A program made the position numbers and the translations under genes. The notes beneath the pieces are model-generated. The model made no database searches, was not told the DNA's origin, and saw only the letters and a list, made by a program, of their open reading frames with translations. A stretch of DNA of 63,118 nucleotides, counting the filler, from Collodictyon triciliatum (lineage: Eukaryota), in assembly GCA_043381765.1 (NCBI GenBank). It is 13 parts of 13 records of this genome, joined end to end, with 100 filler letters (N's around TTAATTAATTAA, not from the genome) between each part and the next. Parts side by side here need not be neighbours in the genome. Positions count along the whole stretch, not along the records: positions 14,603 to 19,367 come from JBHJMP010005778.1; 12 more parts are not named here. One strand, 5' to 3'. How positions within the stretch are numbered: position 1 is the first letter of the stretch; every line of letters begins with the position of its first letter. Of this stretch, positions 13,797 to 50,699 are shown in pieces.

Positions 13797-15105
13797 CTGC
13801 GCAGATTGGGTTGTCGGGTGGCTGCGTTTTGGGTGGGAGTGTGTTAGGTGCCAGAGTCAGCGACACATTGGACTTGCCGTGTGCCTTCACTCGAGATGTC
13901 GGAACAAACTGTTTTTTTTTATTCCCTTCTTTTTCGTTCCAAAGTCGTTCTTTCACTTCAGGTGTCAAGACTTGTTAGATGTCCGTGTGCCACATTTGGC
14001 TTGAGTAATTGTTCCATTGTTCGCATTGTAGAGGCCTTTTCCAAGGGGATGACGGGCCTTATATACACAACGAGGCCAAGCATTTTCCCACATATAAGAG
14101 GAGGGAATTTATAAAGATGTGGTCGGCTTCTAGAAGGGTCAATAGCAAACCTCGCTACATGTGAGTCGAGCCCCGCTAGACTGATAGATTTTCAGTGAAA
14201 TTTCCTTCATCTGGTATTTTGCAGAAGCCTAGCAAAATTTAGCTGATAGGCTATCGCGTGCTAATTTCCAGCACGAAACATTCTGTACAAATATTCTATT
14301 CTGGAAAATAAAAGCGACATATCTGGAACCAGGAAGCTTCTAGAGTCATCCATCTCAATCACAGAAAGCTTCCAGACCACTTTTAACTCATAGAGGAAGG
14401 AGTCCGGTAGAAATACCAAATCAGGATTCGTGTGGTTTTTTCCCTTGCGAATATAAATTGGCCACCAGGAATCAAGAACGACTTCGGAACTGCGTAGTGA
14501 CANNNNNNNNNNNNNNNNNNNNNNNNNNNNNNNNNNNNNNNNNNNNTTAATTAATTAANNNNNNNNNNNNNNNNNNNNNNNNNNNNNNNNNNNNNNNNNN
14601 NNATGAATCCAAGAAACAATGAATTATATAATAATGTTAAAGATACTTCATAATATCATTCTATTCATGTAATTAATTCATATTTTATTGTTCATTTATG
14701 TAATATTATCACTATAATTCAAAAAATGACAAACAAGCCCTTGCCTTGGCGCAGATAGAACCCACCCTATAAATCTACCACCAAACATGCATTCCAGAAA
14801 AACATACTATCCACACTTTCGGCAATAATCATGTTGTTTGAGGCCCATATGTTGACTTTCAGTCGCAATGGTTATACGGCCGTCCTTTCGAACTCACCGA
14901 GTTGGCTCTCAGCGTTTTGTCTCAAATCACTTTTATAAAAAAAAAAAACTTTGTGTGTTTGTTTGCCACAATGCGCACATTTTGAAAGTCTCTGTAGATG
15001 CTTAATTTTATGCAGTTTTTTTTAAATTGGTTGATTGACTGAAGTTTTTTTAAAATTGAAAACACGGTAGTTTTCTAAAGGAAAAAGTAAAACAAAGACT
15101 TTCAG

Positions 15106-17063
15106 ATGAAGAAAACAAAATCTCTTCAGTTTGAGGATGTAAAGCTTGCAAAACCACACTATCGAAACGTGAAAACATCTCTAAAGTCGATTGTAAAGAA
15201 TGCGAATGGCTATGACAAAATCAACGATGCGGTTCTATTGTGTCATAATTTGGTTACCGACCCCTATCTGTTTGCAAGATGTCACATATTGAAACCATAA
15301 CAACTCCCAACAATCGATGAAAAGTTTTTTGTAAGCTTTAAAACAGTCGGAATAGTTTCACAAGATAGACCCGCAAGATTTTTTAAAAAAAACGTCCAGA
15401 AATGAGCAATGACATGATGATCTTTTTATCTCAATTATTTTCGATTCCTTTTGACCCGAGAAGAATGCTTTCCGTTGGTTGGACTGTCTCACGTGTTACA
15501 GTACTTGGCGAAGCAAATGTTAACATCTTATCATAATAACATTAAGGAGCATTTTGTAAAGAGGTTACTGCGCTTTGTAAATCAAACAGTACCTAAAGAT
15601 GAGAGAATATGATGGAAGCTGTTAAAAAGGCAGAGTTACAAAAGTCTTTTTTTTTTTTTATTCTTCTTTTCAACTTTTTGTGCAGGACCGAGGAAAGCAG
15701 AGTTACGAAAGTTTTAAAAAAAAAAAGTCATCTTCAAGAAATTCGAAATACCGGAACAATATAAAGGATGGGCTGCAATGCATTTGCATCGTATCATTCC
15801 CAGCGATATTGTAAATGGTATCGAATATGACGTCAAAGTCAATCCAGATGAGAACATTCCATGTCTGATATACATGAATCATATTTTTGAGGACATTGTA
15901 TCCAAACTGTATCAACCAATCCCCATAAGAACTAACAATATACCATGTCATATTACTCTAGATACTGCATGTTTGATTTATCTATTAGTATCATCAGAAA
16001 AAACCTTATTAATGAAGAATGTATCAGGATGCAAAGAGACCCTATGGGATGAGTTCTTTGAAATGAAGAAGAGGGTCTTTCATCAAAGAGGCTACAATTT
16101 TAAATACACGATACAAACAGGCGGCTTGGCGGTATCATTATTGTTTGAAAAGAAAGCTATTTCAAATTCAAAATTCCAATTTAATCAAAAAAAAACCCAA
16201 GAATGTGTTTATATAGATGAACTTTCCGAAGAGCAGTTATCTTCATTAGCGACAAAAAATAGTTGGAGTGGACGCAGGCAAGTTTAATTTGGTTTACATG
16301 GTAGATGAGATAGGTAAGAAATTACGTTACACGACTCACCAAGGAAGACATGATAGCAAATCTCTTAAAAATCACAAAATGCTCTTGCGCGAGAAAAAAA
16401 AAGTACAATGATTTCAGGGATATAATATATATGGCAACAGATTTACAAAGTGTTTTTTATTTTGGTCTCATAACTCTTGAAGAGAATCAGCGGTTTGAGA
16501 CATCAAGAACATCTTTAATCGATTTAGACAGAACCGAGTAAACATAATTCATGCACGGCCGATTATGAAAAGTTTCGAAAATATGTATCTATGAAATCAA
16601 GATACCAGACAGAACTATCCAGATTTTATGAACAAGTAACTTTTCGAAAGATGAGATGGAGACAGTATGTCAATACAAAAAGAAGTGGAGAGTTGTTTAT
16701 GGACCGAATCGAAAAGAAATTTGGCAAGGATGTTGTACTGGCGTATGAAGACTGGAGCAGAAAATCTCCGATGAACCATTTTATGCCAAGAATCGGAAGA
16801 GCATTACGAAAAATACTATCCAAACGTTTTGAAACAGTTATTGTAAATGGATTTAGAACCTCCAAGATGTGCTGCAACTGCAAAAAAGAACTGGAATATA
16901 TGAAACTGGAAGGAAACACAAAAAAGTGTATAGATGTCTCATATGTAAAGTATGCAATCGCCCAGAAAGCAAACAAAGTGTATTCTTGACCAAGACTTTA
17001 ACAGCGCTAATAATATACTCAAGTTTTTTTAACCCTTCAAAATATGCCTACACCTTTCTCTAA
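15106..17063 (+). pseudogene. Fanzor1-like (TnpB/IS200-IS605 superfamily) RuvC nuclease gene, disrupted by frameshifts and stops
   Basis: Motifs in the expected order across frames: YRNVKTSLKSIVK; YLAKQMLTSYHNNIKEHFVKRLLRFVN; HITLDT; FKYTIQTGGLAVSLLF; RuvC-I IVGVDAGKFNLVYM (Asp codon 16271-16273); FRKMRWRQYVNTKRS; VVLAYEDWS; IVNGFRTSKMCCNC; CLICKVC; DFNSANNIL (Asp codon 16994-16996). Confidence 0.88.
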
Positions 17064-17069
17064 AACAAT

Positions 17070-17282
17070 AGGCTGTCGGGTCTTTCCTGGCAGCCTTCAC
17101 CACTACACGACCTTTGTGAAAAAAAGTGGTGAGACCTTGGATACTAGCGCACCAGGTTAACCAATCGAAAGAATGGTATACCCTTTCTAGTTTATAAAAA
17201 TAAAAAAAATTGATAAACTAATCATCTTATAAATCGCCCACTGCTAGTTTTTTTTTTTAATTTGGTGCGTATTCGCACTCAA
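17070..17282 (+). ncRNA. Candidate Fanzor omegaRNA scaffold / element right end
   Basis: Consecutive hairpins directly after the ORF remnant: 17070-17096 (with G-U pairs), 17097-17132, 17134-17157, 17160-17177 (GAAA loop), 17188-17220 and 17265-17278, plus long-range complementarity. Confidence 0.6.
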
Positions 17283-18609
17283 CAGCAAAACCACAAGTGC
17301 TCTTGGATCCCAGCACCCGGTTGATGACCCACGGATTCTTTTTCTTTTAGTCCCTTTTCGTTCCTTTTTCTTTTGTTCCTGTTAAGCCTGGGTGCGTAAG
17401 TGCATGGCATCTTTCATAAAAACTTGGCACTTTCTCCTGGTGCGAGGATCTATTCTTATTCTTATTTCCTTTTTTTTTTTCTTCCTTTTATCCTTTATTC
17501 GATTCAAAGTGTATTATTTCTTTTTAAAATATCTTTTCTTTTTCTCTTTTCTTTTAGCATATATGAAGAGTACATAGCCTCTTGCCATAAATCCCATAAA
17601 CTCCAACATAAGAAAGGCATGTGATTCTAAAAGACACAAAGTCGATATACTTTAGCGAAGCAATAGCATGGTTTTATGGGCGCTAATTCGCCTCCCTTTC
17701 CGTGTACTTGGATTCGGGTCACGTTTGGCTCATCAGAGCGTTCGTTTGCTCACACTCTTCTACGTTCTCGGTAAGGCTTTGGTTCCCAAACACGATGATG
17801 AGTTCTAGCGATTCACCTTGATTCCACATGGTAAATTAATATCCAGCTCCACGTTGAAATGATGCATTTAGTCTTGTATTATTATAATATCCCAATATTT
17901 TAGATTATCTGCGCCTAAGGGTCTCCTTTCTACGTGTTCGATATGAGAATGACTTTCGAATCCCTTATGTTCCTGTGCATCGCTCTCTTCTGGAGTACAT
18001 CAACCATATCGTAGAGACGGCTCCGCGTTAAAAGTGAGAGTGGGACGCCTAAAGTCTTTGTAGTTTCTCACTAGGCTCTTTGATCCCGCCACCTATTGTC
18101 GCACACATTGGGTTCATATATAACCGTGCTCCAACACTTTTTCATTCCTGACTTTTGCCCTACAGCAAAATGTAGGAGTATAAAGTAAAATCCAGTTAGA
18201 GTCGGCGTGGGCGTAGTACCGGTAGTGGTTGCCTTCATAGTCCTGATGAATCTAATGTGTGTCTGCAGGATATGAAGTGGGAGTCCGTGTTGAGAATACC
18301 GTCAAGCATCATGAAAATGATTTGGCTGCGGTTTGTGAGGCGCACTTCAATCCCCTCTTCAGTGCGGCGCTTGTGGATATCTTCTCTGGTATATCTCAAT
18401 CTGTGAGATGTGAAATCACGCGCTGATGCAGCAAGATTCACAAAAATTACAGTAGCCAGACTTTTTAGACAAAGAAAAAAAAAAACAGGAGAGGGTGTTG
18501 AGTTGATTGCCACGTCCCACACAAACCCTTCTTAGCATCGAGGATATTGTGGGTTTAGGTGGATGAGGCTTGCGGGTCGGGTATCAACAAAAGAGACGGC
18601 CTGGTTTAT

Positions 18610-18780
18610 TTGTGGAATATACCTGTAAAATATATTATTTTGATAATTAGACCTATTTATGAAGCAATATTATTGTGGAAATTGAAACTATATATTATGG
18701 AGTTTCAATTTCCACAATTATTTTAAAAAATAATAGCATACAGATATATGAAATAGCATGCCAAATTTTATCTTCCACAA
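18610..18780. repeat. Perfect 18-bp inverted repeat with symmetric outer 8-bp inverted motif
   Basis: ATTGTGGAAATTGAAACT (18672-18689) and its reverse complement (18701-18718); TTGTGGAA (18610-18617) and TTCCACAA (18773-18780) share the same centre, 18695. Confidence 0.85.
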
Positions 18781-19467
18781 TTGACTAACAAAATCTATAG
18801 CAGTTCGTTGATTAGGTTGTGCAATTCCCTCATCTCAACACGAACGACAGCCATCTCGCATCTCTAGACCGATTCTCTCGTGAACCACAAGTTCCGTTAA
18901 ATTACTTACAAATGGGTTAATTCTTATGAATGTACTATAAAAAATTACATATTAGGTTAAATATCAACAAAATCTTTGTTCGTTTTATTGGTTCATTGCA
19001 ATAACCTAATGCCACATATTCGGATCTGGAGTGGGTCTTTACCCAAGAACCGAGATGATCCATTTGGGAATTCACTGCTGTATCCGCGGGGCACTTTTTT
19101 TTTTAAAGAATAAAGCAAAGAAAAGCAGGAAAGAATAAAGGCTGGGCCTTAGAATTTCTCTTCACTCTTTTTCTTCATCTCCCCATAATTTGTGAGCAGT
19201 TTCTTTGTGTTCTGACTCACCCATCTCGCATAACCACTGTATCCATACTCCATATCAATTTTATCTAAAAAAGAAAAATAAAAAAGAAAAATAAAAAAGA
19301 AAAATAAAAAAGAAAAATAAAAAAGAAAAATAAAAAAGAAAAATAAAAAAGAAAAATAAAAAAGAAANNNNNNNNNNNNNNNNNNNNNNNNNNNNNNNNN
19401 NNNNNNNNNNNTTAATTAATTAANNNNNNNNNNNNNNNNNNNNNNNNNNNNNNNNNNNNNNNNNNNN

Positions 19468-22358: not shown

Positions 22359-22873
22359 TCAAATGCAAACCAATACTAAATAAATGAACAAAAGAAAGTA
22401 TCGATGCCAGCCTACATCAGTCTGAAACGCGACTCAGCGCTGCTTTATCGTGAAAGTTTGAAACGGTATTGAAAGAGAAAGAAGGACTATGCGAAGGATT
22501 GCCCAAGCAAGACCCTTGATTTTCAAATATGTTGTCCTCCATCATAATTTTTTTTTGATGCTTTCGTATTTTATCTCTTCACACACCATAATTCAGAGGG
22601 GAGCGTGTTACATCTAAATGATCACAAAATGATATAAGAAAAGCAACATGAGACCCACTCTTTTTTTCTTCCCTGCTGTCTCCCTTTCGTTTTCCTCCAT
22701 CCGTCTGATTATTTTTGTTTTGTTCTGTTTTGTATCTTTCCTTCGAGAACAGGGCGCGAGAACAAACGCGGGCCAAAATGCAATTACATATATACATGTA
22801 CATATACCGAGCGAGCCCGGAAGAGAGGACGAGTGCGCGCCGAAGAGAGGCATGGGAGAGGAGGGAGAGGCGG

Positions 22874-24106
22874 TCACTTCCTGGCACGGGCGGCGGGGCG
22901 GACGGCAATGGCAGGGAGGCGGATGGGGAGGTCGCCGGTGGGGATGGAGGGGTGCGGCGGGGGAAGGAGGAGGCGCGGGTCCACAGGCACGGAGCGGGCC
23001 CTCGGCGAGTCAGCACGCAACGAGGGCAGAGACGGGGCGCGTCTGTTGTGGGGGGCGGTCAAGGCCGGGAGGAAACCATCGTGCCCGGTGCGCGCGGGCA
23101 TCTTCTGCCTGGCCGGGGCGTACGAGCGGTGGATGCGCGGCGGGAAGACGCGGATGGCGTGGATGCGGGGCACAAGCGCGTCCCACGACTCCGGCGACGG
23201 GTGCGCAGGCAGGGCGAGCGGGCGGAGCTGCGCGTCCGAGAGCTCCAGGCGGGAGCGCGGGTAGAAGGACCGGAGATAGAGGCACAGCTGCTGCAGCTCC
23301 TGCACGCGCCGCGGGAAGGGAATCAGCGCGTCCATCTCCGCATCTGCCACCACCACACGCACAACCCCGCGGATCAGCTCCGAGTTGAAGTCGTAGCAAG
23401 GCGGCAGGCGGATCGGGGCCATAGCCGCGCGCAGGGACGACGGCGGCGGGCGGTCGGCGTTTGTGTCGATGAGCAGGCGCTCCTCCTCGCGCGGGAGCGG
23501 CTCCGCGTACGACGCGTCGAAGAGGCGGGATAGGAAGCGCCAGGTGGGATCGAAGAAGTCGAACAGTGTGGCTGTGGCTGTGGCTGTGGCTGTGGCTGTG
23601 GCTGTGGCTGTGGCTGTGGCAAAGCCGCGCATGCGCGCCACGCGGAAGTGGACGGGGTCGAAGGCGGCGCCCCAGGCCGGCAGCAGCGTTGCGATGGCGC
23701 GGTGCCACGCGGCGAGATGCGGGAAGCGCGCCCAGTCCAGATCGAGCAGCTCCAGATCGGCCAGGGCGGCGGCCACGCTCACGTCCGCGAGGGTCGGGTG
23801 CGCGTGTGTGCAGAGGAAGCGCCGCGTGCGCAGGCTGCGGTCCACCAGGCGCAGGCACCGGACCAGCGGGGCGGCACAGCGGGGCGGGGCGGGCGGGCTC
23901 GGTCGCAGCGTCAGTCCCTTGCGCGCCATGTGCCCCAGAAGCAGCCGGCCCAGTGTGACGTAGCGCCACCGCAGCCATCGCTCGATCCCCGCCTGCGCCT
24001 CGGCCGCGTACCATCGCCCCAGACCGGCTGCCTCATGCGTCGCCGCGAGTGTGCGTAGGATGTTGTGTCTGCCGGTGTTGTGTGCGTAGTCTGTTTCATT
24101 CATCAT
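22874..24106 (-). CDS. GC-rich ORF (410 aa): GST C-terminal-like helical domain, (TA)n peptide linker, unknown C-terminal domain; true 5' end uncertain (near contig end)
   Basis: LRLVDRSLRTRRFLC..PTLADVSVAAAL..LDWARFPHLAAWHRAI fits the GST-C pattern; a (GCCACA)n hexamer encodes ATATAT. Confidence 0.55.
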   Translation of the reverse strand: MMNETDYAHNTGRHNILRTLAATHEAAGLGRWYAAEAQAGIERWLRWRYVTLGRLLLGHMARKGLTLRPSPPAPPRCAAPLVRCLRLVDRSLRTRRFLCTHAHPTLADVSVAAALADLELLDLDWARFPHLAAWHRAIATLLPAWGAAFDPVHFRVARMRGFATATATATATATATATATLFDFFDPTWRFLSRLFDASYAEPLPREEERLLIDTNADRPPPSSLRAAMAPIRLPPCYDFNSELIRGVVRVVVADAEMDALIPFPRRVQELQQLCLYLRSFYPRSRLELSDAQLRPLALPAHPSPESWDALVPRIHAIRVFPPRIHRSYAPARQKMPARTGHDGFLPALTAPHNRRAPSLPSLRADSPRARSVPVDPRLLLPPPHPSIPTGDLPIRLPAIAVRPAARARK

Positions 24107-24331
24107 GGTGATTGTATAAAGGGCTTTTCTCTTCTTTTCTTTTCCTTTTTCTTTTTCTTTTTCTTTTTCTTTTTCTTTTTCTTTTTCTTTTTCTTTTTCT
24201 TTTTCTTTTTCTTTTTCTTTTTCTTTCTCTTNNNNNNNNNNNNNNNNNNNNNNNNNNNNNNNNNNNNNNNNNNNNTTAATTAATTAANNNNNNNNNNNNN
24301 NNNNNNNNNNNNNNNNNNNNNNNNNNNNNNN

Positions 24332-43560: not shown

Positions 43561-44085
43561 GGGCAAATGAAAGCAAAATAGTGACAAAAACAAAAACAAA
43601 AACAAAAACAAAAACAAAAACAAAAACAAAAACAAAAACAAAAACAAAAACAAAAACAAAAACAAAAACAAAAACAAAAACNNNNNNNNNNNNNNNNNNN
43701 NNNNNNNNNNNNNNNNNNNNNNNNNTTAATTAATTAANNNNNNNNNNNNNNNNNNNNNNNNNNNNNNNNNNNNNNNNNNNNAGAATAGAAAGAATAGAAA
43801 GAATAGAAAGAATAGAAAGAATAGAAAGAATAGAAAGAATAGAAAGAATAGAAAGAATAGAAAGAATAGAAAGAATAGAAAGAAAAAGAAAAAGGAAAAA
43901 GAAAAAGGAAAAAGAAAAAGGAAAAAGAAAAAGGAAAAAGAAAAAGGAAAAAGAAAAAGAAAAAAAGATGGAAAATCGTCACCTTTTTCAGATTCAAAAA
44001 CACGACCTAACACAAGTCCACTTTCTTTTAATGTTCTTTGTCTTTTTCTCCCTGCGGTGCCTTCCCCTTCCTCCATGTTTGTGAA

Positions 44086-44117
<32 letters not shown>

Positions 44118-44171
44118 CGGGCTGGGCTGGGCTGGGCTGGGCTTGGGCTTGGGTGGGGTTGGGGGCCGCAG

Positions 44172-45498
44172 GTTGGAGATCACGGAGGAGCAGCTGGAGG
44201 AGATGCGTGGGCACCTGGACGACATCAACTTCGAGGTTGCGGAGGCGCAGGAGCGGATTGTGCGGCACGACGTGATGGCGCACGTGCACGCGTTCGGGGT
44301 GCAGTGCCCGAAGGCCAAAGGGATCATCCACCTGGGGGCGACGAGCTGCTACGTGGGGGACAACACGGACCTGATCCAGCTGCGGGACGGCTGCCGGCTG
44401 GTGGAGCGGAAGCTGGGGGAGCTGGTGCGGGTGCTGGCGGAGTGGTGTGTGGCGCACAAGAGCCACGCGACGCTGGGATTCACGCACTTCCAGCCGGCGC
44501 AGCTGGTGACGGTGGGCAAGCGGGGTGCGCTGTGGCTGCAGGACCTGTGCATGGACCTGGAGGACCTGCGGGCGGTGCGCGCGTCGCTGCCGTTTCTGGG
44601 GGTGAAGGGCACGACGGGGACGCAGGCGTCGTTTGTGGAGCTGTTTGGGGGCGACGAGGCCAAGGTGCGGGCGCTGGAGGAGCGCGTGACGCGGCGCATG
44701 GGCTTTGCGCGCGTGGTGGGCGTGGCCGGGCAGACGTACACGCGCAAGATCGACGAGCGCGTGGTCAGCGTGCTGTCGCGCGTGGCGCAGAGCGCGCACA
44801 AGGCGGCCACCGACATGCGGCTGCTGATGCACCTGCGCGAGGTGGAGGAGCCGTTCGGGGCGCACCAGATCGGGTCCAGCGCCATGGCCTACAAGCGCAA
44901 CCCCATGCGGTGCGAGCGCGTGTGCTCGCTGGCCCGCTTCGTCATCGCGCTGCACGCAAACACGGCGCACACGCACGCCAACCAGTGGATGGAACGCACC
45001 CTCGACGACTCCGCCAACCGCCGCCTGACCCTGCCGCAGGCCTTCCTCGCCGTCGACGCCATCCTCGCGCTCCTCACAAACGTCCTGGGCCACGCGCAGG
45101 TCTGGCCCCACGTCATCCGCCGCCACGTGCTGGAGGAGCTGCCCTTCATGGCCTCCGAGAACATCCTCATGGCTGCCGTCAAGGCCGGCGGCGACCGCCA
45201 GGTCCTGCACGAGGCCATCCGCGCCCACGCCATGCACGCCGCCCGCAGGGTCAAGGACGAGGGCGCCCCCAACGACCTGCTCGACCGCATCCGCGCCGAC
45301 CCCCTCTTCGCCGCCGTCCTCCACAGGCTCGACGACCTGCTCGACCCCGCACACTTCATCGGCCGCTGCCCCGCCCAGGTCGACGACTTTGTCCGCGACG
45401 TCGCCCTCCCGCTCGTCGCCCTCGTCCACGCAGACAACGACGCCGACCCCGCCGCCCGCGCCCCGCACACCTCCGCCGACGAGACCGTCCGCGTCTGA
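44172..45498 (+). CDS. ADSL: Adenylosuccinate lyase (eukaryotic type); N-terminal exon(s) not on this contig
   Basis: RHDVMAHVHAF, IIHLGATSCYVGDNTDLI, TLGFTHFQPAQLVTVGKR, GVKGTTGTQASF, QIGSSAMAYKRNPMRCER; acceptor CAG at 44169-44171. Confidence 0.97.
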
Positions 45499-45624
45499 GG
45501 CCCCTCCAACCCCGGCGCCTTTCCCGCCTTTCCTTGCCCCTTCGCCCCTCCAATAAACACCCCCCTCGATCTCAATCTCGACTCCAACCCTTCCCGATTC
45601 TCCCTCCTCCCCCCCTTTTTCCCT

Positions 45625-46326
45625 ATGCAAAGACCCTCAGTGCGCGCTGGTCTTGCGAAAGCCCCAACTGGCAACGCGAAAGCCCCAACTGGTGTTGCGA
45701 AAGCCCCAACTGGCAACGCCAAAGCCCCGGCTGGTCTGTCGACACAACAGCTGGGACCCCAGGTACCTGCCCGATCCGCTCGTGTGCCGAAAGCTGCTGT
45801 TGGTGCTGCCAGTGCGGCCCCCACCCGCGTGGGTCGTCCGGCCTCTCGTCCGGAGAGCGCGTTGCCCAGGAAGAAGCCGCTTTGCTTCTTTGTTGTGGTT
45901 GCAGAGGAGATCCTGGTATGTGGACTCTTTGCTCCTGGCTTGCCAGCTGCTCTGCCTCCTCCTCTTCTGTGGGGCTTCGGCTCCTTTACTCATCTTCAAT
46001 TCTCATCCTGTTATCTATCTAGCTGAAAATATTTCAATACTTGGATATACTGGAGTTGCTCCGCATACAACGAGTCTGCTATCGATTCTACAGAGTATCG
46101 AGCGATAGGTGCATATGGAGCCCGTTGTATGATGCATACATCGAAAAGGGTATTTTGCCAAAGCGAATCCCCACTTATCAACCGGATATGCCCCATACAT
46201 CTTTGTTTCGTGGTATCTATGATCGTGCAAGGCTATCCAAGCTTCGAGAGATCTTGGTTTGATTCCCTCTATTTTATTTAACATCTTATTTCCTCTTCTT
46301 CTCTCTCTCTTACACAGAGACATAGC

Positions 46327-48275: not shown

Positions 48276-50699
48276 AAACTGCCCAATTAATCTTCGCCCG
48301 TCATCGCCACAGCCCTTCTCGTGCCGGAAGGTTTCATAAACATATTCTATTCCCCATGGCCCATCTCCATCCAGCGAACCCGGAATTCTTTTGCTACAGA
48401 AAGGGATGACGTACTGTGGTTGAACAAAGCAGATATTCACGCTAAGATAAAAATAAAAATAAAAATAAAAATAAAAATAAAAATAAAAATAAAAATAAAA
48501 ATAAAAATAAAAATAAAAATAAAAATAAAAATAAAAATAAAAANNNNNNNNNNNNNNNNNNNNNNNNNNNNNNNNNNNNNNNNNNNNTTAATTAATTAAN
48601 NNNNNNNNNNNNNNNNNNNNNNNNNNNNNNNNNNNNNNNNNNNGTTTTTTAATTTTTTCGTTTTTTTTCTTCTTTTGTTTTTTTTTTTTTTTTTTTTTTT
48701 CTTTTTTTCTTCCTTTTTTTTTTTTGGCAGCGCGGTTGTGTGCAGAAATAAGCGCTTGTTGGACTAAACGATATGTTGGGAACGAGCCGAATGTAACAGC
48801 AAATTGATATATAAACTGCTGCTGAACTACATTCAAACCTGTAATTTTGATGCCTTTCAGAATTTAACGCATAAAATTGGGACACTTTACTATTATTCTA
48901 TATTTCCCACAATCGTAATTAGCACGTCTAAATATGGCCACAGTCCATCCAGGGAGGAATGCGGGAATTGGGGGCTCGTTAAGATACCTTTTTTTTTTCT
49001 TCAAATGCACGGCGATAAGCGAAAAGTTGCGAGAATAAAACAAAATACTAAGATTACAAACGAGAGAAGATACCTGCGGAAATAATCCATAAAAATGAGT
49101 AATAGGCATCCCCTGTAATACATTCCATCGCACTTAAAGAACCCGGAAGCTTGGATGGGCAGGGATAAAGACCGCAAAGGTAAGTAGCACACAATAGAAT
49201 TGTGCTCTGTGGAACCCTTTAAATCTAGTTGATGGGACTTCCTAGCATTATTATGGAAGACTCAGGCCCGGGGACATCTGCTGGGAAATAAGAGTCCTAT
49301 TCATCCTTCTAAAGATCCGTCTTCTGCAGGAAAGGTTGTATTTGCTTTTGGAGTTGTCTTTTTGGGGAGGAGATGAGTGGCGTTTCATATAAAAACGACC
49401 AAAAATTAAAATAAATATAAATGGAATGCTATTGTATCATTATTCGCCCTGATAATATATTTGTGGGTGCATCACGTAGGTCGCAGAAGGGATATTCAAT
49501 TTGGGACAACGCTCAAATATACTCTCGAGAGGCAGAATCATTTTATTCAATTCAATATATAAAAATCTAAAATCTATAAATGGATGAATAAGAATGAAAA
49601 ATTAAAGTCTATTATATATATTTAACAAATCCTCTGTGGGTCTCCACTCCTGAAACTCTGCAGGTAAGCACGCTTTTGATGAATCGGTGTTTTTCAAAGA
49701 ATCCAGAGGGAACTCAGGTAGCCCAAATGCTTTGGTTGGGACAGGATATCAGAAAATTCTCATCAGGGTATTTGTGATAATTCCGCAGTATCACTTCAGC
49801 TTCTGATTCAAAAAAATCAGAAAAGGATATTGGCCAAGATGAAGACGCACCTGGAATGATACATCAACAAATCACATACAAAGAAAGCGGAGAGGCAGAA
49901 ACATCGTCCAAGTCGTCTTCACAGAAAAGTGACTGCTCCAAATCGACAATCATCACAAAAACAGTGGCTTCAGATAAGTCAAATCTTGACAGGAATACCT
50001 TTAAAGAGAGGGAAGGTGAATATATGAAAGAAGTCCGATATTACACAAGCAATCTTACATTGACATTGTAATGTAAATCAAATATATTCCTTCGTTCCCG
50101 ATAGAAACATGCCATAATATAGGCCCTATGTTTTTTCACATCCAATGAGATAACATTAACCACTATATATTAAGAGTGGTTGTTTTGGATGATGATTCAT
50201 CTTATTAATAATTCGAGCGATATAATTACTACCACAGACGTTGAATTTCAAATATTATCCAGCGACAACAAAAAACTGGCACCTCTGGATTGGAAAAAGT
50301 AAGCAGCTTAAGGAATCAATTTGTTATTTTGTTTTAAAAAAATTATCCTACCGTATTTTATCACTTTATTTGTAATTATTCAAAAGTACAATTTATTTGT
50401 GGCATTGACCAAGACAAAGGGTAAGAGAGAGGGATGATTTTCGCCGCCTGGAACCTCCAGACCCGCATCCACCCAGGTTTCGGCAGCGCTCATATGATTC
50501 ATTAGTTAATATCACCGAAACATTGAGAAGGGAGACACAGCAGGTTATCATAAACATACTTTGACGAATACTTGGTGCTTACAAACGAAAATTTAATCAA
50601 AATCAATAATCTATTACCAATGAACTGTTTCTTACAACCATAATGATATTTAAGTTCGTATGATTATTACATTGTTTACAAGACAATTTACTTTCATCA

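Follow-up and report, generated by a model that had tools for sequence, protein, structure and literature searches.

Does the DNA at positions 15106-17032 of the window still encode an RNA-guided nuclease, and if not, of what is it the remnant? The window is the whole stretch analysed here, 63,118 nucleotides (nt, filler included) of Collodictyon triciliatum (assembly GCA_043381765.1), and the region in question lies on contig JBHJMP010005778.1, which occupies positions 14603-19367. Fanzor1 proteins are TnpB-like, RNA-guided RuvC endonucleases of eukaryotes and viruses. The region was found to hold a near-full-length but wrecked Fanzor1 gene on the plus strand. We are confident that it is a dead copy within a repeat unit extending from upstream of 14603 to about 17170-17190, and that the organism holds many diverged copies of this unit.

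15106-17032, plus strand: Fanzor1 pseudogene (ATG at 15106, present stop at 17030), from tblastn with the relative P0004, profile A1 and close copies

A sequence-only reading of the locus had listed eight Fanzor motifs in the expected order. All eight were present in the window translations, each in its place and in that order: VKTSLKSI, YLAKQMLTSYHNNIKEHF, FKYTIQTGGLAVSLLF, RKMRWRQYVNTKRS, IVNGFRTS and the first CxxC in frame 1, VGVDAG and DFNSANNI in frame 2, and the second half of the zinc finger, CLICKVC, in frame 3. When the 153-amino-acid (aa) piece encoded at 16528-16989 was searched against PDB with phmmer, it matched the Fanzor1 of Parasitella (PpFz1, E 1.2e-9), SpuFz1 (E 4e-4) and GtFz1 (E 6e-3); the sole non-Fanzor match (E 0.71) was unrelated. 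The 189-aa piece of 15718-16287 matched the same three Fanzor1 proteins (E 4e-8 for PpFz1, then 0.015 and 0.033), and the 53-aa RuvC-I piece alone matched no Fanzor in PDB. A read-through of frame 1 over 15091-16287, with X at its seven stops, was collinear with PpFz1 in the PDB phmmer search. Against 1.84 billion representatives it returned 1151 proteins at E<=1e-3, of which 509 reached E<=1e-10 and 13 reached E<=1e-30, the best at 1.8e-67.

Profile A1, built from 40 full-length relatives (615 positions), matched frame 1 of the window with 448 bits (E 7e-138) over profile positions 9-570 of 615, and the RuvC-I block in frame 2 with 47 bits. In PDB, A1 matched SpuFz1 (E 6e-106), PpFz1 (E 3e-105) and GtFz1 (E 2e-77), confirming the Fanzor1 type named by the sequence-only reading. 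That reading had staked itself on a RuvC, TnpB or Fanzor match, and the 448 bits and these three structures supply it. No Fanzor2 or TnpB chain was matched by A1 in PDB at E<=0.01, and the next match was LaTranC (3e-4 over 40 residues). P0004, the closest full-length relative (634 aa), aligned by tblastn collinearly from residue 12 to 584 on 15136-17006, in four frame blocks. Full-length relatives measure 600-700 aa and their alignments begin near their own N-terminus, so the ATG at 15106 is the old start and the relic is near full length. Significant collinear similarity across the REC/WED, RuvC and TNB parts indicates that 15106-17032 is, by descent, a new member of the Fanzor1 family, of a type already known.

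No open reading frame (ORF) spans the whole protein. Mapping P0004 and four close copies on the DNA and comparing ORF frames gave about nine frame changes within 15106-17032; besides these, a TAA interrupts the frame at 15298 and 74 nt are inserted. The split gene of the sequence-only reading is thus upheld, and its "at least five ORF fragments" is an understatement. The path and its lesions are as follows.

15106-17030, plus strand: reading path, frame 1 to 3 (about 15390), to 1 (about 15421), to 3 (about 15603), then the insertion, then to 1 (15718)
continued to 17030, plus strand: frame 1 to 2 (about 16253), to 3 (about 16403), to 1 (about 16526), to 3 (about 16920), to 2 (about 16992)
15298-15300, plus strand: in-frame TAA, outside a homopolymer; the P0004 alignment passes through it
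15644-15717, plus strand: 74-nt insertion within the ORF, with a 22-nt direct repeat on either side (15627-15648 and 15694-15715)
16403-16527, plus strand: frame-3 stretch of about 125 nt, against 7 residues in P0004

The frames at 15390-15620 and 16590-16854 were fixed by the close copies P0005, P0016, P0158 and P0159. At the site of the 74-nt insertion, P0005 and the relative P0003 lack about 23-26 residues. The frame-3 stretch at 16403-16527 is possibly a local duplication. Two other readings were rejected. The 74-nt insert has a pyrimidine tract and CAG as an intron might, but its joints end GT..AA, and removal of 47 nt gives no match to relatives. An alternative genetic code was dismissed because the frame changes stay whatever the stops encode.

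The catalytic and conserved sites were then read along this path.

16120-16122, plus strand: Gly at the Asp of T-D-G (TGG); the A1 column has D in 34 and N in 6 of 40 relatives
16271-16273, plus strand: RuvC-I Asp, kept (VGVDAG); D in 40/40 relatives
16747-16749, plus strand: Glu at the invariant Gly of G-D-W-S (YEDWS); G in 40/40 A1 relatives
16849-16851, plus strand: Gly at the catalytic RuvC-II Glu (VNGFRTS; relatives vDEfrTS); E in 39/40, one gap
16870-16955, plus strand: C4 zinc finger (TNB domain); the frame change near 16920 splits CCNC (frame 1) from CLICKVC (frame 3)
16992-17020, plus strand: RuvC-III DFNSANNI; Asp at 16994-16996 kept, the preceding Arg/Lys codon one base short

The residue after the RuvC-I Asp is Ala, where 39 of the 40 A1 relatives have Pro. 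The TGG for TDG noted earlier was borne out by the A1 column, the neighbours of which are T in 40/40 and G in 39/40; T-D-G lies N-terminal of RuvC-I, and no evidence supports a catalytic role for this motif. The Gly codon at 16849-16851 aligns with LIDEFRTS of PpFz1 and LLDEYKTS of SpuFz1. The Glu replaced here is the one that Fanzor1 structures show on the loop linking the fifth strand to the TNB domain (PMC11423790), and it matches the "alternative" Glu described for Fanzors in place of the canonical RuvC-II Glu (PMC10530073). The C4 zinc finger follows TSKM, which corresponds to the [TS][TS]-X-X motif given in PMC3627910, and the relatives P0009 and P0017 score above the cut-off for PF07282.

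Both altered columns are otherwise strict: among 192 relatives of at least 450 aa, 174 have G at the G-D-W-S Gly and E at the RuvC-II Glu, and the other 18 are gapped, with no third residue. Close copy P0159 reads ...YGDWS...VSVDEY, keeping the Gly as well as the catalytic Glu, and P0158 shares the Glu of YEDWS. The Glu at 16849-16851 has been lost by mutation within this copy, which bears on activity and not on descent. With its frame changes, stop and insertion, and with Gly in place of a catalytic Glu that 39 of 40 relatives retain, the copy at 15106-17032 is, to judge from its sequence, dead and non-functional, as had been proposed; RNA-guided double-strand cleavage by it would not be expected.

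Copies of the unit were sought in four public sequencing runs (X1-X4), compared with the contig at 85% likeness as short Logan contigs. The numbers of contigs aligning to 14603-19367 were 450, 423, 190 and 21 in the four runs; in X2 they were distributed over likeness classes of 99% and above (19), 95-99% (110), 90-95% (189) and under 90% (132). At a single place (16021), up to 20 different contigs of one run differed from the window. Among the contigs listed, those of the nuclease unit differ by about 10%, and flank contigs of X2 and X3 by one letter in 352 (17947-18298) and one in 366 (17903-18268). This is read as many diverged copies of the unit, held by the same or a sister species within otherwise unique DNA. 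Depth was not taken as evidence of copy number or of a border, and neither its fall after about 17150 nor the thin cover of 17600-19367 is usable for either.

Some copies lack the breaks of the window copy. The 74-nt insertion is bypassed by contigs joining 15643/15645 to 15718/15720 (1+3 in X2, 1+1 in X3). At 16253, two extra bases are present in three X2 contigs, and three extra bases in one contig each of X2 and X3. Two extra bases at 16525 occur in all four runs (1, 4, 4 and 1 contigs in X1-X4), and one extra base at 16992/16993 in 3+1 contigs of X2, 2+2 of X3 and 1 of X4. Because there are many diverged copies, some of them without these breaks, and because P0159 keeps the Glu, the copy belongs to a multi-copy family that was once intact. 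These copies and the G...DE of P0159 give indirect support to the proposal that the host carries or carried an active family; no intact close copy was seen. From a separate run, one X1 contig of 151 nt shows no difference from the window at 16811-16961, an interval spanning the Gly codon as well as the A-run frame change at 16919-16925. This break and the Gly codon are therefore considered real and not an assembly slip.

The repeat also extends upstream of the gene.

14603-15105, plus strand: leader, or upstream part of the repeat unit; diverged contigs of X2, X3 and X4 align

One listed record spans 14623-14775, and other letters were seen at 14756-14896 in up to 14 contigs. The four ORFs of 14603-15105 match no Pfam family. 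Because the contig starts inside the repeat, the left end of the element is missing and the 5' border lies before 14603. No terminal inverted repeats were found on the contig, where only low-complexity pairs were seen, and there is no inverted repeat between the leader and the 3' end; these repeats and a target-site duplication stay undefined because the 5' end lies off the contig.

The closest sequences are fragments, with identities to the window of 63% (P0005), 68-82% (P0016), 80% (P0158) and 79-82% (P0159). P0016 and P0158 come from NCBI contigs of 714 and 513 bases, and their predicted proteins are translations of other broken copies, partly in the wrong frame. The word-indexed protein search gave no longer relative, one near fragment of 84 aa and one shorter fragment of 68 aa. 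Among 58 pattern matches to the 153-aa piece in JGI metagenomes, there was one weak relative (L001, 43% over 36 residues). When IMG/VR was scanned with eight P0004-like proteins, 329 of the 447 pattern matches encoded relatives, and 80 of these viral loci were kept (L002-L081). The longest plus-strand ORF is 590-690 aa in 67 of the 80, being at another place in one of the 67 (L055). Several of the loci lie on contigs of 100-250 kb, up to 254 kb, from metagenome-assembled genomes (MAGs) of giant viruses, and L002 is 88% identical to P0004. The window shares 33-35% identity with L002-L007 and P0004 in its decayed N-terminal part and 49-53% in the C-terminal part. P0003, a 291-aa "hypothetical protein" from an NCBI/JGI record, is closer (50-74%). 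The nearest intact full-length relatives (33-53% identity) are thus found on giant-virus metagenome contigs.

A phylogeny with viral Fanzors had been suggested as a check. In a quick maximum-likelihood tree of 75 rows, with support from the Shimodaira-Hasegawa-like approximate likelihood ratio test (SH-aLRT), the window and P0003 form a pair (100) inside a 35-row clade (97) that contains all 22 viral rows, a clustering that is partly by construction because the viral rows were picked by likeness to P0004. The inner order of the clade is unresolved. A preprint (bioRxiv 10.1101/2024.09.03.611062) describes giant endogenous viruses of green algae that bear Fanzor1 elements and, in Chlamydomonas, Fanzor1 shared between virus and host, with a fragment on a host chromosome that has 80% identity to a viral element. 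Viral spread of Fanzor was proposed by Bao and Jurka in 2013 (PMC3627910), and surveys of Fanzor1 list thousands of proteins (PMC10530073).

Downstream of the gene, the repeat unit ends in a short tail.

17033-17193, plus strand: 3' tail of the repeat; two hairpins predicted, at about 17070-17096 and about 17097-17132

The 3' border of the repeat would fall at about 17172-17193 or beyond, and X4 record 31 spans 16995-17172. The omegaRNA scaffold would be expected at 17033-17193. For the viral loci, similarity between copies extends from about 50-95 nt 5' of the ATG to 47-90 nt 3' of the stop, and the tails share a near-invariant end motif preceded by stems in which both sides change together. 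In the viral units (L002-L081, e.g., L011:4760-4900), the leader measures about 50 nt and shares the motif GCGT(T)AAAA..ACTTAAA, and the tail, of 50-90 nt, has the near-invariant end ...TCGGCGTTT[TG]AAATG...AAAGGTGTAAA, ahead of which nested stems covary. The viral ORF reads through the stem region in some subclades and stops ahead of the stems in others. These giant-virus Fanzor1 units have neither a transposase nor inverted ends.

RNAalifold predicted 0 pairs on a 53-row alignment of the viral tails. The stems were drawn by eye after this null result and from the same sequences, so the following counts favour the drawn structure: in a 17-row alignment, 90% of cells pair, versus 45-60% when the partner is slid, changes on both sides are seen in 7 of 20 pairs, and none of 500 shuffles attains the covariation score. 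The viral tail looks as an omegaRNA scaffold might be expected to look, and an omegaRNA of the window copy is suggested by the family only. Candidate likenesses of the window tail itself did not hold. A resemblance by eye of its frame 1 translation (17014-17157) to the C-terminal tails of P0004-type proteins was not supported: BLASTP gave E 12, at another place in the protein, and phmmer at best 3.5 bits, versus up to 7.9 for 50 shuffles. The likeness seen by eye between the window tail and the viral tails failed testing. A reverse-strand AAAGGTGTAGG at 17047-17057, like the viral end motif, is taken as chance because the viral units have no inverted ends.

Could the gene be intact in the organism, the breaks being sequencing or assembly errors such as homopolymer miscalls? 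Several frame changes do fall at A/T runs (about 15386-15395, 16394-16403 and 16919-16925), and the assembly is highly fragmented. However, no homopolymer is present at the TAA (15298) or at the 16525 and 16992 breaks, the 74-nt insertion carries its own direct repeat, four substitutions hit invariant or near-invariant columns, and the contig from another run agrees with the window over 16811-16961, the 16919-16925 run included. Such errors are an extremely unlikely explanation of the damage. It is distinctly unlikely, too, that the host genome holds here part of an endogenous giant virus instead of a transposon copy. No other viral-type gene was found among the 11 flank ORFs of the contig, and identity to viral proteins is only 33-53%. 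Moreover, the diverged contigs listed fall on the nuclease unit only and the listed flank contigs are near-identical, a pattern of a repeat in unique host DNA. In favour of a viral fragment are the giant-virus MAG contigs, up to 254 kb long, that bear the nearest relatives still intact and full-length, and the endogenous giant viruses of green algae and the 80%-identical host fragment described in bioRxiv 10.1101/2024.09.03.611062.

The two substitutions at 16747-16749 (G>E) and 16849-16851 (E>G) are reciprocal, and each is a single transition. The G-D-W-S Gly column may correspond to the canonical RuvC-II Glu position of TnpB. A sub-lineage is then conceivable whose catalytic Glu had returned to that position and which was active before the window copy decayed. 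This is consistent with the reciprocal changes at columns that read G and E in 174/174 ungapped relatives, with the same E in P0158, and with the "alternative" Glu that Fanzors have in place of the canonical one (PMC10530073). On the other hand, close copy P0159 retains G and DE, P0158 is frame-shifted ahead of the second site, which leaves the paired change in one dead copy only, both changes are single transitions amid much other damage, and the match of the G column to the TnpB position is an inference. We regard a relocated Glu as highly unlikely; two independent transitions in a dead lineage would be the simple reading of the exchange. Just as little credence is given to the wider idea that the window copy, and perhaps P0158, descends from a host family seeded from giant viruses in which RuvC-II was rewired, and that intact members of this family may exist in this freshwater-associated eukaryote.

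The reading we prefer, a dead Fanzor1 copy in a multi-copy repeat with giant-virus kin, also has results that weigh against it. A Pfam scan of the ORF pieces brought none of seven to any family, with two chance-level matches (E 0.12 and 0.23). The four close relatives are fragments of 68-139 aa, two of which (P0016 and P0158) are themselves frame-mixed, and no intact close copy was found in the word-indexed protein and JGI metagenome searches. The share of sampled words of the stretch was 0.08 in the best of 6 runs, none of them listed as RNA, though X2 and X3 may be; since no run holds more than 8% of the words, the basis of the copy counts is short Logan contigs, which may come from a sister species. 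No transposase was found on the contig, as had been stated earlier: the 11 flank ORFs gave three chance-level matches and no family above the cut-off on a contig of 4.77 kb that starts inside the repeat. Neither element ends nor a target-site duplication were identified on it. The viral clustering carries the selection noted above, and only 13 of 156 representative proteins are at least 50% identical to the 80 viral ORFs. Finally, the tail gives little sign of a structured RNA. The fold of 16930-17215 (-57.4 kcal/mol, z -1.65) was equalled by 13 of 200 shuffles. Covariance model R1, built from the viral tail, gave 22 matches at E<=10 in the whole window (the best E 0.081, at 49902-50022), none of them on the plus strand of 16950-17350, and a local search of the window tail reached 0.7 bits at 17083-17132.

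Judging from SpuFz1, PpFz1 and GtFz1, the intact ancestor of the dead copy would have been a protein of about 630-680 aa with WED, REC, RuvC and zinc-finger TNB domains. As in known Fanzor1, it may have bound an omegaRNA made by transcription of the element's 3' end and cut double-stranded DNA beside a short transposon-adjacent motif through a D...E...D triad, the Glu of this triad in the family probably being the "alternative" one just ahead of the zinc finger. Cutting presumably aided persistence or spread of the element. After insertion, neutral drift would have led to the frame changes, the stop, the insertion and the substitutions at otherwise invariant columns. The lineage appears nearest to a Fanzor1 clade of short, transposase-less units in giant-virus genomes; therefore, exchange between virus and host, in either direction, is its likely origin.

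Among characterized proteins, SpuFz1 (8gkh), PpFz1 (9cf0) and GtFz1 (9cer) are collinear with the window copy over nearly its whole length and share the order of REC/WED motifs, RuvC-I D, helix region, alternative Glu, C4 and RuvC-III RD..N..NI. They differ from the window copy, which is broken and has lost the catalytic Glu; identity is low (phmmer E 1e-9 at best). The window copy also lacks the long N-terminal extension and the FRI insertion of PpFz1, the alignment starting at about residue 150 when the maltose-binding protein (MBP) tag is allowed for. Fanzor2 and bacterial TnpB (IS200/IS605 and IS607) have the RuvC plus zinc-finger core in common with the window family and, presumably, the RNA-guided mode. 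In contrast to them, the window family has a Fanzor1-type N-terminal half, and A1 matched no Fanzor2 or TnpB chain at E<=0.01; its protein is about 200 aa longer than a typical TnpB.

The viral Fanzor1 units L002-L081 share the tree clade, an intron-less gene and a similar length (about 620-634 aa). They differ in being intact and in having a leader of about 50 nt and a covarying tail of 50-90 nt, a model that the window tail fails, whereas the repeat unit of the window extends for 500 nt or more ahead of the ATG. The Chlamydomonas endogenous-virus elements have a Tc1/Mariner-type transposase (bioRxiv 10.1101/2024.09.03.611062), in contrast to the contig of the window copy, on which none is seen. 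The elements of Bao and Jurka (SPu-1 of Spizellomyces and the Hydra and Mayetiola families; PMC3627910) are similar in having a single ORF, a length of about 2.1-2.5 kb and many copies about 90% alike, with intact ORFs in some only. Their motif D-X(125,275)-[TS][TS]-X-X-C4-X(5,50)-RD is recognisable in the window copy, which differs from them in lacking definable terminal inverted repeats or a target-site duplication, its 5' end being off the contig.

The relic itself changes nothing: decayed, multi-copy eukaryotic Fanzor1 elements have been known since 2013, and sharing between viruses and hosts has already been described. Its value lies in the family. With many copies in the organism or a sister species, some of them without the breaks, natural intact nucleases of the subfamily may exist, and the subfamily connects a repeat of a host genome with a large, mostly giant-virus-borne Fanzor1 clade. 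This giant-virus clade, with its conserved, covarying, RNA-like 3' tail, would be a better starting point for study than the window copy. The reciprocal G/E exchange at two alternative RuvC-II Glu positions is a curiosity.

The remainder of the window is heterogeneous. It consists of 13 pieces in descending size (4,769, 4,767, 4,766, 4,765 ... bases), the fourth of which holds the Fanzor1 copy and is its only context, and neighbours in the window are not neighbours in the genome. The linkers read N44-TTAATTAATTAA-N44, giving 24 runs of 44 N, and recur every ~4,863 bases (4770-4869, 9637-9736, 14503-14602 and so on). The contig of the Fanzor1 copy ends in a 13-nt tandem repeat (TAAAAAAGAAAAA, 7.8 copies, 19266-19367), and repeats with a 13-nt spacing at the beginning of the first contig (10-85) match a T-rich segment at 17532-17555. 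The 13-nt repeat looks satellite-like, and contigs appear to break there.

Most pieces are AT-rich (guanine-plus-cytosine (GC) content 0.28-0.39), with ORFs that match NHL, LRR, kinesin, zf-RVT and, weakly, TMEM132, a set that might point to an animal-like eukaryote. A few GC-rich pieces (0.52-0.67) lie among them, at 12735-13856 (minus strand), 22600-24230 and 43782-46100. An aldo/keto reductase ORF (E 2e-66) is found on one, a GST C-terminal domain on another, and a third bears long overlapping ORFs that match no Pfam family. Because the GC-rich pieces look bacterial, the assembly is probably mixed (symbiont, contaminant or metagenome bin). On another contig, 11258-11401 (minus strand) gave a weak tblastn match to the Fanzor relative P0021 (residues 403-451, 33%, E 0.005); no other relative matched there, and the match is probably due to chance. 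The ORF at 36509-37393 (plus strand) has a zf-RVT domain (E 7e-7) and is probably part of a retroelement. Rfam at gathering score gave a single match in the window, a tRNA gene at 54165-54236 (plus strand, 62.9 bits).

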